Part shown: positions 52,274 through 59,840 of the stretch, in pieces
How positions within the stretch are numbered: the stretch's first letter is position 1
Layout of the letters: each line of letters opens with the position of its first letter
Virus record (IMG/VR): IMGVR_UViG_3300008516_000114
Span: 1 to 64,000 of that record
Direction: 5' to 3' (one strand)
Length of the DNA stretch: 64,000 bases
DNA from: a virus
Notes under the pieces: generated by a model
Told to the model about the DNA's origin: nothing
Seen by the model: only the letters and a program-made list of their open reading frames with translations
Database searches by the model: none
Position numbers and translations under genes: made by a program

Positions 52274-53479
52274 ATGAGACCACAACAAGAGACAATAGAA
52301 AAGCGAATAGATGAGAAACAGCGCCCTGAAGAACATATAAAAGAATATGGTTCAAAAGGATTGTTCATAAAATCCGAGAAATATTCTAAAGAGCCACTGG
52401 AGGATATAAAATTCAATTGTCGATTTTACAATGAAGAAAAAACAGCATACAGCGGTAACTCTACTATAATAATAGACTCCGTACTTACCTGTGCCGGTGC
52501 TTCTAATTATGATTCTGATTCAGATGGAGTCTGGACAACAGTTTATACAAGTGCAGGGGCATCATGGGTGATAGATCAATGGGCTGGTTATTATTTAAAA
52601 ACATCTGGTTTATATTTTTATATTAAATCAAATACTGCTACCGCATTAACAATAAGGGCAGTACCTGGTATTGAACCGATAGATGGTGATTTTGAAATTG
52701 TGCCATTTATTGCTCATTCAATGTATGGGGCGGAACTGAATCCTGATACGACACAGGAAACGGTATTTCAAATCGTAAATAATACCGATACAACAATAAC
52801 CGTAGCACCGAACAATGATTCTTTTCTTACAGATGTAGCTGTTGCTACCGACCCATTTACAGTTAAGGGTTATTATGCACCGTGTTTAGCAGATTTTACC
52901 GATACAGATGAAGGGCAAGATGCCGGTGTTATTCAGTCTAAGATAGTTAATGCCCCATTTGGTAAATTAAATGATAAGAATATGGGGCAATACTTCATTG
53001 GTGTCTACTCGGTTAGACTTATGACATTTAGAAGCAAAACCGTTCGATTAAAATTAGATGTTCCCGATAGTTTGAGAATAGTGGAATACGAATCGGATAG
53101 AGAGGCAGTGCTTGTAAATTCAAGATTCGGACAGAATAAAGTACAGTTCATAAGTTTATATTTTATGGCTAATGTATGGAAACGATTAGATATATTCTAT
53201 TACACAAAAGATGGTGATTACGGATTCACTATAACAGGAGCAGATAAACCGATAGGTGATTATATAGATGCCTGGAGCGATGTAACGCCGGAAGTACCTC
53301 AATGGGTTAGTGGATATCCCGAAGGACAATTAAGACAGATAGAATTGAGATGGATCAACACAGGATTATTAGGGCAAGGGGGCGGTACACAGATATTCCG
53401 TTCTGATGATGATGGTGCAACATATTCTTTCAAGGCATTTGTTCCGTGGGATCATAATACATATTTTGATTCCAGTTAA
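52274..53479 (+). CDS. Tail protein ending in an incomplete FN3 domain (strands A-E)
   Basis: PEVP...IELRW...QIFRSDDDGATYSF.....YFDSS then stop. Confidence 0.7.
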   Translation: MRPQQETIEKRIDEKQRPEEHIKEYGSKGLFIKSEKYSKEPLEDIKFNCRFYNEEKTAYSGNSTIIIDSVLTCAGASNYDSDSDGVWTTVYTSAGASWVIDQWAGYYLKTSGLYFYIKSNTATALTIRAVPGIEPIDGDFEIVPFIAHSMYGAELNPDTTQETVFQIVNNTDTTITVAPNNDSFLTDVAVATDPFTVKGYYAPCLADFTDTDEGQDAGVIQSKIVNAPFGKLNDKNMGQYFIGVYSVRLMTFRSKTVRLKLDVPDSLRIVEYESDREAVLVNSRFGQNKVQFISLYFMANVWKRLDIFYYTKDGDYGFTITGADKPIGDYIDAWSDVTPEVPQWVSGYPEGQLRQIELRWINTGLLGQGGGTQIFRSDDDGATYSFKAFVPWDHNTYFDSS

Positions 53480-53552
53480 AAGATATTTGATAACTTAAAT
53501 AAATTTAGAAATGTCGATAACTTAATGAGAAAAAAAACGAAAGGAGAAAACA

Positions 53553-53702
53553 ATGGAAATTATGATAGGTTCTATATCAAATATAGATAATCGTGGAACT
53601 CCTTTTACCGAACAGTGGGTTGGTGATGTTGAAAGATTATTATTAGAAATTGGAGATTTTACACTGTTAGAAAACGATGATAAAATATTAACGGAGGATT
53701 AA
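53553..53702 (+). CDS. 49-aa acidic structural peptide (not in ORF track)
   Basis: AAGGAG RBS; LLLEIGDFTLLENDDKILTED. Confidence 0.6.
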   Translation: MEIMIGSISNIDNRGTPFTEQWVGDVERLLLEIGDFTLLENDDKILTED

Positions 53703-53705
53703 ATA

Positions 53706-56582: not shown

Positions 56583-56609
56583 TCTAATTATAAAAGAGGA
56601 TAAATAAAA

Positions 56610-59600
56610 TTGATAGCAGAAAAAACTTACTATTATAAGCTAAGACATAAAAACGCCCGTGGTGATCTATCAGATTATTCTTCAGTGGAAAATGCAGCAT
56701 CACTAGCTGAAGCGAGTGATAATAATACATTATCAATTAAATGTCAATGCGGTGATAGAAAATTAAATATTAACACAGCTTATTATAAAATTGGAGATTC
56801 TTTGATAATAGACGTTACATCTCAATTGCCATTAACAGCAGAACCCGTTGTAACAATAGATAATTATAATATAGGTGTGGCGGATAGTAGCACAACAGAT
56901 TATCTAAGCAATATATATTTACCTCTTCCTATAGCAGATTTTCAAAGGAGTAGTACAGCACAATCAGTAAATAATCCAGCAAAAACAGTAACGCTTGATG
57001 TGGGGGCATCTGCTGTCAATGATTTTTATAAAGATATGGTACTGGTAATGGATAATGAGCAACACAGAATTACTGCTTACAATGGAGACACAAAAGTTGC
57101 AACAGTAGAGGGTTCTCCAGCGTGGGGTGCAGGTACTTATCAGATTTATTTATATCACCAAGGCACGGTGATATTAAAAGCAACAGCAACAGTAAAGCAG
57201 GGTGGTACTTCGATACAGACAGAAGTTGATATCATGCTTGATTTTATTGCACCAACAGTAACAGGAACGCCTATTATCATAGATACAAAAAATAACGACC
57301 AAATACCAGAAAATGTACCCTATGCTTATAAAGCTGAGATGATATGGATATTTATTACCGATGATGTTTCAGATACAAGTGGCGATTCCAGCGAAGCAGC
57401 GGGGTTGAATAAAGTTTATTTACAGAATGCTTTTGTAGGATTAAGTACATCTACACCAGGCGATACTCTTGTGGATAGTGTATTGGCTAATATTTTTGAC
57501 GATGATTATTGGAACGATTATTATTTAACTGATTCCGGGGGTATGGTATATCAAATATTAAATTATATTGGTGCAACAGGAACATTTGAATTAGATGATA
57601 CTTGTGATGATGGTGTTTATTATGTAACAAAATATGATCCAACCGATACCGCTCATTATAGCGATTGGAAAAATTACGATGTTCAAAATTACCAAGTATT
57701 TAATTGGAATCTTACTATAGAGATGCCATATAATAAGGATGAGATTCCCGATACCGGGCAACCAGGAAATGGCGGTAGTGTAGGCGGAGAAGATGCGTAT
57801 CTTGATACAGACCATAAATATAAAGTGGTAGCAAGATTCACCGATAATGCTGAGAATTTTTCTAATATCTGTTCAGATGATATTTATCTAGATAAGACAC
57901 CACCATCATCACCAACAGAATTTACAGCCAAGGGAATGTTAGAATCTATTTTATTAACATGGCAAAATCCAGCCGATCTTGATTTAGATAAGATCAATAT
58001 TTATATGAGGGATCGTGAAGGTATATGTTCTGGAGGCATACCAACGAATTATGATAAAACTATTTATATACCCAATGCTATTCCAGATAAATATATGGAA
58101 TATACAATTTATTTTCAAGAACCCGACCCACAGCATAAATACTTTATATTAACAGCAATGGATAAAGCGGGTAATGAGAGTATTTGTTCAAGTGAAGAAG
58201 ATGCAATATCATTTGGCCATTGGGGCAAGATATTCAGGAACTGGCTGGATAATTCATCTTTCGAGAGAACTGTGCCTAGCGATGCTAATTTACCAGTTAG
58301 TCTTCTTAAATCAGGCTCTCCGACAGTAGAAACTTCATCTCAATATGGTAGTAATAGCATTTTAGTTGATCAGAATGATTATTACTACTATGATTATATG
58401 TGGTTACCTGCAAGTCCCGATACATATTTCTTCACTTTTAGTGTTTATGCAAGATATGATACAAATTGTCAAGCTAAAATAGAGATAAAGTTTTATGATT
58501 CAAATGGAGACCAAACAGGTTCTACTATTACTTTATTAACAGGAAATGAATTAGGGGATTCTTTAACTGATACCTTTGTACGCTATCATGCACATTTCGG
58601 CGTTGAGGGCAATACCATACCATCTGATACTACATCTGCAAAGATTTATTTCAAATCTGATAGCGATACGAATAAAGCTTATTATGATGCCGTCCAATGG
58701 GAACAAGTTACTGCTATTGATTCAGATCCCACAGATTATGTAGAAGGCAGGGTAATATCCGGCGATAGAATGATGGCTCATTTTATACGTGGTGATCATA
58801 TAGAATTTGATACGATGATTGGTAATCATTTCAAAGCGGTTTCGATTCAAACAAGCAAATTAGAAATAGCCAGCGGTGAAAATCTTGTGCCTAATTCAGC
58901 ATTTGAATCAGATTTTGCATACTGGACATACGATGCTGATTTCAGTTTGAGTGATACTCGTATAGTCTATGGAAAACAATGTGCCAAATTAGTATTAGCA
59001 AGCGCTGAGGGTTATTTAAAATCCGATTATTGTCCTATTAAGCAAGATGCTGATTATTGCATAAGTTTCTATTATTATCTTGATGCTTTGGGTGATGATC
59101 TATATTTCAAATTAGAGCAATATGATAAAGCCCATGTTATAGGTACGACTACTACAATGAAATCCTCCAATTTTACAGAGGATGCTTGGACAAGATTTGA
59201 ATATCAAATGACTGTTTTTGATGCTGATGCTGCTTATGTGAAAATTTATATTTTATGTGAGGAAGATGGATTAGCCACCACTGGTTATTTTGATGCTTTC
59301 CAGATAGAGCAAATCGCATCAGCTACGCAGGGTGCAAGTGATTATAAAGGGAAAACCAGGATAGTTGGCGAGGAAATTACAGCGGGTAAGATTCAATCAG
59401 CCGATGAAAAGACTTATTTTGATCTGGATAATTCTGTAATTGTTCTCGATCATCCAACAGCAGATGTTAAAACTGTATTAAAATCTGATTATCTTGCAAA
59501 GACTTTTGACGGAACTAATTATCATAAATATCCAGTTGTTATAGTAGCAACCACAACAGCAGAGGCAGATGGTAGCTTGGAGTATTCTTTATGGTGGAAT

Positions 59601-59840
59601 GCCGGAGCGACTGATGTTTTCAATTTAGGTAGTCGAGCAGAATATATGAATTTATACATAGTATCAGTTTTGGAGAAGGAGACGGGTTGGGATGTATATC
59701 AAAATTATAAAGCACTTGCCAATGATATTAAAATGCATCAGAGTGTAGAATTAGATGGAGTAGCAATTACTGCAGCAGCTGGTACTTTCACTAACAATGC
59801 TGATATTAGAATAGTGTTTTTAAGTTCTATAACATGGTAA
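56610..59840 (+). CDS. Large tail/receptor-binding protein beginning with FN3 strands F-G; further FN3 and CBM-like domains
   Basis: TTG start with GAGGA RBS; KTYYYKLR..N..G..S.YS; DKTPPSSPT..ILLTW FN3; NLVPNSAFE CBM4/9-like. Confidence 0.75.
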   Translation: MIAEKTYYYKLRHKNARGDLSDYSSVENAASLAEASDNNTLSIKCQCGDRKLNINTAYYKIGDSLIIDVTSQLPLTAEPVVTIDNYNIGVADSSTTDYLSNIYLPLPIADFQRSSTAQSVNNPAKTVTLDVGASAVNDFYKDMVLVMDNEQHRITAYNGDTKVATVEGSPAWGAGTYQIYLYHQGTVILKATATVKQGGTSIQTEVDIMLDFIAPTVTGTPIIIDTKNNDQIPENVPYAYKAEMIWIFITDDVSDTSGDSSEAAGLNKVYLQNAFVGLSTSTPGDTLVDSVLANIFDDDYWNDYYLTDSGGMVYQILNYIGATGTFELDDTCDDGVYYVTKYDPTDTAHYSDWKNYDVQNYQVFNWNLTIEMPYNKDEIPDTGQPGNGGSVGGEDAYLDTDHKYKVVARFTDNAENFSNICSDDIYLDKTPPSSPTEFTAKGMLESILLTWQNPADLDLDKINIYMRDREGICSGGIPTNYDKTIYIPNAIPDKYMEYTIYFQEPDPQHKYFILTAMDKAGNESICSSEEDAISFGHWGKIFRNWLDNSSFERTVPSDANLPVSLLKSGSPTVETSSQYGSNSILVDQNDYYYYDYMWLPASPDTYFFTFSVYARYDTNCQAKIEIKFYDSNGDQTGSTITLLTGNELGDSLTDTFVRYHAHFGVEGNTIPSDTTSAKIYFKSDSDTNKAYYDAVQWEQVTAIDSDPTDYVEGRVISGDRMMAHFIRGDHIEFDTMIGNHFKAVSIQTSKLEIASGENLVPNSAFESDFAYWTYDADFSLSDTRIVYGKQCAKLVLASAEGYLKSDYCPIKQDADYCISFYYYLDALGDDLYFKLEQYDKAHVIGTTTTMKSSNFTEDAWTRFEYQMTVFDADAAYVKIYILCEEDGLATTGYFDAFQIEQIASATQGASDYKGKTRIVGEEITAGKIQSADEKTYFDLDNSVIVLDHPTADVKTVLKSDYLAKTFDGTNYHKYPVVIVATTTAEADGSLEYSLWWNAGATDVFNLGSRAEYMNLYIVSVLEKETGWDVYQNYKALANDIKMHQSVELDGVAITAAAGTFTNNADIRIVFLSSITW

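Follow-up and report, generated by a model that had tools for sequence, protein, structure and literature searches.

Genes that are contiguous in relatives but cut into two separately translated open reading frames (ORFs), the products of which are expected to reassemble, have been described in phages as genes-in-pieces (excerpts of PMC2988022). The examples given there include Aeh1 nrdA, split by mobE, the T4 topoisomerase genes 39/60, split by mobA, and gene 43 of phages 25 and 44RR; in the same excerpts the divided genes encode enzymes, and the halves are separated either by a homing endonuclease gene or by a short spacer that is not translated. Gene calls fragmented by selfish elements are common enough in phages for a dedicated pipeline to exist (PMC8351571, in part), and fractured genes with split inteins provide a further case, in which an insertion breaks a gene of which both halves are retained (PMC2677866, in part). 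Here we describe a divided tail gene in an uncultured phage of marine sediment, located in the first 64 kb (64,000 nt; hereafter the window) of IMG/VR record IMGVR_UViG_3300008516_000114, which is 89,683 bp long and has direct terminal repeats. Two ORFs, which we term gene A and gene B, are colinear with one uninterrupted gene, as in genes-in-pieces, and no homing endonuclease gene lies between them. Whereas the described cases are enzymes, at this locus a virion fibre protein is cut within a β-sandwich of ~90 residues, an FN3 domain, by a 3.1-kb insert of four genes without a nuclease.

Split inteins carry intein fragments at the break (PMC2677866, in part), whereas here the ORFs end and start exactly on host protein sequence. 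A split FN3 or Ig-like domain shared by two phage tail proteins was not found described in a full-text literature search, outside which most subscription journals lie. What appears new at this locus is the combination of a fibre protein, a break within a small β-sandwich and a multi-gene, nuclease-free insert.

In chaperone-usher pili, an Ig-like fold without its C-terminal strand or strands is completed by the N-terminal extension of the next subunit, giving a strong non-covalent fibre joint. Pilins are short of a single strand and depend on a chaperone together with an usher. In the present case an FN3 domain would receive two strands, F and G, and no chaperone is evident. Alignment shows the gene A product to be incomplete and its completion in trans is a prediction, and in contrast to pilins the origin would be a recent gene fission, with fused homologues extant. 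In engineered pairs of the SpyTag/SpyCatcher type a small β-sandwich is cut into a short peptide that bears a strand and a remainder on which this peptide docks. Those pairs are man-made and locked by an isopeptide bond, whereas the pair described here is natural and no covalent bond is indicated.

The divided gene and its uninterrupted relatives

Of the ancestral long tail protein, gene A (52274 to 53479, plus strand; 401 residues, from the ORF list) represents the N-terminal part, which is proximal, and gene B (56610 to 59840, plus strand; 1076 residues) the remainder. The C-terminus of A reads ...FVPWDHNTYFDSS*, closing at 53479 (in longer form, ...QIFRSDDDGATYSFKAFVPWDHNTYFDSS followed by TAA), and B opens as TTG-IAEKTYYYKLRHKNARGDLSDYSS at 56610. 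A word-indexed sequence search with B returned four clusters, namely B itself, P0002, P0003 (1271 residues) and P0004 (1814 residues). P0004 starts like A and then runs uninterrupted through the junction as ...FVPWDGNEYTDAGLDGETTYYYKLKSRNNRGDLSDYSS. Its residues 1 to 393 align with A at 57% identity (E 2e-139), and its L395 aligns with residue 1 of B. Relative to the fused homologues, A and B together are colinear, with zero residues lost or gained.

With A as the query, exhaustive searching by HMMER yielded 55 hits, 24 of which were inspected at the domain; the remaining 30 matched only earlier parts of A. The FN3 region was uninterrupted in 21 of the 24, comprising proteins of 1640 to 2025 residues, a group of ~750 residues and others. 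The other three (P0008, P0010 and P0019) end shortly after strand B, and may represent another break point in the same FN3 domain in another lineage. P0008, a protein of 474 residues, is present on 10 contigs, the longest of 37.7 kb.

A metagenome scan provided one DNA locus, L003 (JGI contig Ga0265293_10008212), in which the end of the tape-measure gene is followed by ORFs of 445, 207 and 1596 residues and then by a single fused ORF of 2484 residues, without endonuclease or cassette. When the two loci were compared codon by codon, the TAA stop of gene A (53477 to 53479, plus strand) and the TTG start of gene B (56610 to 56612) both fell on one Leu codon (CTT) of the 2484-residue gene. The insert is therefore 53477 to 56609 on the plus strand, 3133 nt in length; it is absent from L003, and its deletion restores the reading frame exactly. 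No DNA relative was found in viral contigs (queries A, alignment A1, P0008 and A5), in a phage collection by tblastn (queries A and the 67-residue ORF of the insert) or in genome contigs (queries A1 and A5).

The identity of the interrupted domain was addressed with alignment A4, which comprises 12 uninterrupted copies and was used as a profile against solved structures. Solved FN3 domains were matched over the full length, including those of gp130 (E 5.2e-9, profile positions 14 to 113) and titin (5.6e-14), and there were further matches to myomesin and the designed FN3con (5.6e-4). Phage tail proteins were also matched: the tail fibre 9l9p_S (5.1e-7) and the J-like tail tip protein 23gd_D (1.2e-5). 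By alignment to uninterrupted domains, the first five strands (A, B, C, C' and E) lie at 53279 to 53476 on the plus strand (A residues 336 to 401), and by alignment to the fused homologues strands F and G lie at 56610 to 56684 on the same strand (B residues 1 to 25). The break thus falls between strand E and the Leu preceding strand F. An AlphaFold model of gene A alone (predicted local distance difference test, pLDDT, 81.2) places its last five strands at residues 344-347, 356-359, 371-376, 385-391 and 396-399. Foldseek searches of this model against PDB and BFVD returned weak matches only. PA14/Flo-like adhesin domains (template modelling score ~0.3) and the lambda tail tip (probability 0.30) were too weakly matched to assign the N-terminal domains.

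At the level of sequence, these comparisons show a long tail protein gene split at one codon within an FN3 domain by a 3.1-kb module. The original prediction had joined the end of A to the start of B as one standard FN3 domain, with the TTG at a conserved Leu and a gap of 3133 nt, and had proposed a search for uninterrupted homologues of ~1480 residues. The gap measures as predicted, the TTG aligns to L395 of P0004 and to the Leu codon of L003, the profile match covers the whole domain, and the uninterrupted forms exist, at 1814 residues (P0004), 2484 residues (L003) and 1640 to 2025 residues; the fused homologues read through the join, which lies far beyond chance.

The edges of the insert are consistent with separate translation of the two genes. 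A Shine-Dalgarno-like AAGAGGA (56594 to 56600, plus strand; read from the sequence) is positioned 9 nt ahead of the TTG of gene B, and an in-frame TAA (56601 to 56603), 6 nt upstream of the TTG, closes the frame there. When the complete 89.7-kb genome was screened by tblastn and for motifs, no other orphan copy of either half-domain was found.

Two observations concern the fused relatives themselves. Within the 2484-residue gene of L003, at ~10200 to 13200, short ORFs on both strands recur every 1986 nt, which suggests an internal tandem duplication that would account for the extra length over P0004. For P0060 and P0059, which are cluster mates of P0004, NCBI names fragments as coming from metagenome-assembled genomes of Candidatus Marinimicrobia; this is a weak hint that Candidatus Marinimicrobia is the host of the fused-form relatives, or else a binning artefact.

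The break appears in both halves of a relative of ~70% identity, read here from two separate protein records. P0058 (424 residues), which derives from a Logan assembly, matches A along its entire length at 70% identity and follows it to ...FVPWDHNMYIDLG, exactly the end of strand E; 25 unrelated residues and a stop then follow, and strands F and G are missing. P0002 (968 residues) is 73% identical over half of B and starts, as MIAGKTYYYRLRH..., at the same residue as B does. Its N-terminus is MIAGKTYYY, and the residues that mark FN3 strands F and G (TYYY.LRH..RGDLSD.SS) are retained in it. A split common to a relative at this distance suggests that the arrangement is old and has been maintained by selection. 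The GC content at third codon positions, at 0.215 in the glycosyltransferase-methyltransferase gene of the insert compared with 0.261 in A and 0.225 in B, is like that of the flanks, as would be anticipated if the insertion is old.

The 5' end of the insert also seems to be common to the lineage of P0058, as suggested by the residues directly behind the junction. There, K-I-F-D in the window corresponds to K-K-F-D in P0058. The GATAACTTA copies, in the frame of A, each read D-N-L, and the tail of P0058 has D-N-L twice, an event with an a-priori probability of ~1e-5 in 25 residues. When the tails from the window and from P0058 were aligned locally, the score was not significant (784 of 2000 shuffles reached it).

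Probable complementation of the two products and alternative explanations

To what extent the two half-domains are able to form one fold was assessed by a controlled complex prediction of A residues 322 to 401 with B residues 1 to 40, each with its own alignment. The complex reached an interface score (ipSAE) of 0.69 (runs 0.64, 0.69 and 0.74), compared with 0.08 for the best control. Contact agreement between runs was at least 94%, and the pLDDT of the partner was at least 75. The tightest contacts are predicted between A residues 371 to 377 (strand C) and B residues 7 to 14 (strand F), running antiparallel, which is the C-F pairing of FN3. Furthermore, Y9 of B is placed against I356 and L358 of A, an arrangement found in intact FN3 domains. 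The prediction of this complex, which had been proposed as a check, therefore rebuilt the expected strand pairing with a score above its controls.

We consider it likely that A and B are two polypeptides joined non-covalently by two-strand β complementation of the FN3 domain. This reading is favoured because of the colinearity of the two genes with fused homologues, the split being kept in a ~70%-identical relative, the conservation of both half-domains and the controlled complex prediction. The sequence comparison shows that an ancestral single gene for a long tail fibre or tip-associated protein (~1480 residues here; 1640 to 2484 residues in the inspected fused relatives) was cut by insertion of the 3133-nt module at the Leu codon between FN3 strands E and F. 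The 5' edge of the module provides a TAA stop and the 3' edge a ribosome-binding site, and the former Leu codon, as TTG, now serves as the start of gene B. The two chains would presumably be translated separately from one late transcript, whereupon the first ~25 residues of B (strands F and G) may dock on the five-stranded remnant of A to complete the FN3 sandwich. The joint would hold B, the distal and putatively carbohydrate-binding portion of the fibre, on A, the proximal portion, in an arrangement that appears old and kept by selection.

Several observations weigh against this interpretation. Pfam fn3 (PF00041) gives no match at E<=1 on A, B or five fused homologues, so that the FN3 assignment rests on the profile search against solved structures. 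P0058 and P0002 are known as protein sequences and may come from one genome or from two, and the 25 extra residues of P0058 mean that a stop exactly at the junction is not conserved. Conservation of B residues 1 to 25 is average for the protein (rank 366 of 715 windows along it). The success of the complex prediction may reflect the model's memory of solved FN3 structures, and halves of split domains tend to pass; in calibration, 58 of the 80 solved complexes attain the ipSAE mark, as do 2 of the 110 mismatched pairs, counts that hold only roughly since own alignments were used here. Finally, gene B modelled by itself gave a poor structure (pLDDT 43.3), which was left unused, so the N-terminal hairpin might pack elsewhere in B.

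Alternatively, both proteins could be made with no reunion through the FN3 halves, the remnants being vestigial or repurposed and B attaching by another surface. The average conservation of the B N-terminus, the unrelated tail right behind strand E in P0058, the poor model of B and the capacity of the complex score to stem from fold memory all favour such an explanation. The conservation of A is, however, hard to square with an unfoldable remnant: 55 of 66 residues of its FN3 part are identical in P0058 (rank 45 of 335 windows along the protein), compared with 193 of 288 in the body of A (residues 41 to 335). In the comparison of B with P0002, 18 of 25 residues are identical over residues 1 to 25 and 43 of 73 over residues 31 to 110, and the signature residues of strands F and G are retained. 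In addition, the complex prediction beats its controls, and the genome offers no other partner strands. On balance we regard the absence of reunion as unlikely, while giving it more weight than any other alternative to complementation.

It is very unlikely that the insertion simply broke the gene and left B, or both halves, as an unused and decaying remnant. Although TTG is a weak start codon, a good ribosome-binding site precedes it, and the frames of 401 and 1076 residues are intact. Both halves retain 70 to 73% identity in the relative with the same break. As the base composition of the insert is like that of its flanks, there has been ample time for decay, and none has happened.

The original prediction had left a choice between strand complementation and a rejoining of the message or protein. 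Of these, complementation is the better supported, as a predicted interaction; rejoining, whether through intron splicing of the 3.1-kb insert, protein splicing, translational bypass or DNA excision in part of the population, is highly improbable and drew negative results throughout. In its favour, the junction is seamless and the frame is exactly restored on removal of 53477 to 56609. Conversely, no Rfam intron family, group I and group II included, and no other relevant Rfam family was matched at E<=1 in a scan of 52000 to 60000. The end of A and the start of B are adjacent on the fused homologue and carry no additional residues of the kind that intein fragments would contribute. No direct or inverted repeats bracket the insert in a repeat search of 53380 to 56720, and no terminal inverted repeats, target-site duplication or att-like flanking repeats were found around it. 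All four genes of the insert are of an ordinary kind, point the same way and have ribosome-binding sites of their own, and one encodes a structural fibre. Bypass in T4 gene 60 skips 50 nt, and we know of no precedent for a translational bypass of 3.1 kb, which further counts against rejoining.

A direct repeat of GATAACTTAA had been predicted at 53489 and 53516, at the start of the gap, and both exact copies were located there (53489 to 53498 and 53516 to 53525, plus strand), 27 nt apart and just within the 5' end of the insert. These are the only two exact sites in the window. With one mismatch allowed there are 12 sites compared with 10.4 expected, and since this count is at chance the sequence is not a window-wide element. 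Because the pair is confined to the 5' end of the insert, a role as repeats bracketing the insert for excision is excluded.

Excision in part of the population was also assessed in contigs from four DNA runs (two samples of one study, probably the window's own source). These contigs bridge both junctions without a variant, and none joins 53476 to 56610, although contigs drop rare variants. On the plus strand between A and B no terminator-like site was found, the promoter and terminator scan being at chance level. The only match in the Rfam scan, to the skipping-rope family at 55929 to 56007 in the collagen repeat DNA, scored 20.5 bits compared with a gathering threshold of 36.7 (E 0.5) and is most likely due to chance. 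That the cassette was misjoined during assembly is scarcely credible: assemblies do end within the collagen repeats (contig ends at 55536 to 55565), but single contigs span both junctions in two of these runs (X1 and X2), coverage is ~200x at each junction in the other two (X3 and X4), and P0058 and P0002 come from other assemblies with the same break.

The inserted genes and their genomic setting

The four ORFs of the insert are co-oriented on the plus strand. The first (53553 to 53702; 49 residues) has no family match in Pfam or PHROG. The second (53706 to 53909; 67 residues) is a small fibre-like protein, likewise without a Pfam or PHROG match. In an ESM Atlas feature search its nearest cluster has PF24243 Phage_tail_C (score 0.94, 184 shared features), which we treat as a lead only. 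The third (53929 to 55182) encodes a fusion of a glycosyltransferase family 2 (GT2) domain and a methyltransferase domain (GT-MT) of 417 residues from its ATG, with matches to PF00535 (E 8.5e-11) and PF08241 (E 8.4e-7); its open frame starts upstream, at a TTG at 53896. The fourth (55161 to 56582; 473 residues) is a collagen-like tail fibre (Pfam Collagen E 1.9e-39; PHROG 5073 tail fiber E 7.3e-89). The presence of a fibre and glycosylation cassette in the gap, as originally proposed, is thus borne out by the Pfam and PHROG assignments of the GT2-methyltransferase and the collagen-like fibre. Pfam and PHROG scans of the four ORFs revealed no nuclease, integrase or transposase signature, and neither the GT-MT gene nor the collagen gene has a paralogue elsewhere in the genome.

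Relatives of GT-MT were found at 18 IMG/VR loci. At nine of these (L006 to L013 and L019), both domains are matched and the GT-MT gene has a collagen-like ORF on its own strand no more than 3.5 kb away; all nine are high-GC phages, with GC contents of 0.54 to 0.69. The other nine are without a collagen-like ORF, seven of them matching one GT-MT domain and two (L014 and L015) matching residues 2 to 345. The linkage suggests a conserved fibre-modification module. Given the pairing in nine of 18 loci, the insert would represent a widespread module of a fibre plus its modifying enzyme. The nine linked loci bring together the same two large genes as the insert does; in them the pair was not seen inside another gene, the flanks not having been searched for splits. 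At L019 (6001 to 7677) the GT-MT homologue is in pieces, comprising a 219-residue GT part, an unrelated 178-residue ORF (6591 to 7127) and a 185-residue MT part.

Within the insert, the end of the 67-residue ORF (...PDNPVTGMIWVDLP) reads as the first half of a fibre motif, the start of the collagen ORF (55161 to 55240) is a possible second half, and the GT-MT gene lies exactly between the two ORFs. The 67-residue ORF and the collagen ORF may therefore constitute a nested second split. A search for longer homologues found no uninterrupted homologue joining the two.

The divided gene is situated in the tail module of a genome with a GC content of ~0.34, in which the plus strand holds nearly all genes and which is found in marine-sediment metagenome runs. 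The tape-measure gene (40015 to 43962; PHROG 4211, E 2.9e-71) is followed by a 380-residue ORF, a free-standing LAGLIDADG/HNH homing endonuclease gene (45121 to 45879; Pfam LAGLIDADG_2 1.2e-16, with an HNH-like N-terminus by PHROG), a 211-residue ORF 3' of the endonuclease and a protein of 1592 residues (47480 to 52258) directly before the split-gene region. The endonuclease gene, the sole one of the homing type seen, sits between the 380- and 211-residue tail-module ORFs, ~8 kb upstream of the split; in L003 the homologue of the 211-residue ORF (52% identical) directly follows the 445-residue ORF, and the endonuclease is absent there. The designation of A and B as a tail fibre follows from the gene order after the tape measure together with weak carbohydrate-binding module matches, such as that of gene B residues 758 to 880 to CBM_4_9 in the Pfam scan.

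Elsewhere in the window, a UvrD/PcrA-like helicase is encoded by two ORFs (1283 to 2155 and 2898 to 3710), 745 nt apart. The first matches Pfam UvrD-helicase (8.2e-58) and maps to PcrA residues 11 to 316; the second matches UvrD_C (3.5e-32) and maps to approximately residues 355 to 632 of a solved UvrD. As judged from these alignments, the two-ORF helicase looks like a second split gene in this genome.

Meaning for phage tail fibres

Taken together, these observations allow a broader reading that we offer tentatively and think rather doubtful as a whole. In it, this lineage would keep a natural two-strand 'split-FN3 clasp', made when a fibre-plus-glycosylation module hit one codon, and the distal receptor-binding part of the fibre would be produced independently of its anchor and could perhaps also be exchanged independently. 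The helicase and the possible nested split would, within the same reading, hint at a nuclease-free and seamless form of module insertion into the middle of domains, which leaves a stop codon at one edge of the module and a ribosome-binding site at the opposite edge. Should several such insertions prove to be real, their origin would merit a study of its own.

Split genes of phages are known for enzymes, and how the pieces find each other is still unclear. Because the FN3 fold is well understood, and both fused and split forms exist in nature, re-association in the present case is predictable at the level of residues and could be tested with two short fragments. If the interaction is as predicted, it would be an example of natural fold complementation joining the parts of a virion, and it might yield a compact protein-protein clasp that can be genetically encoded. 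For the phage itself, the split would make the tail fibre modular, one gene carrying the anchor and another the receptor-binding part.

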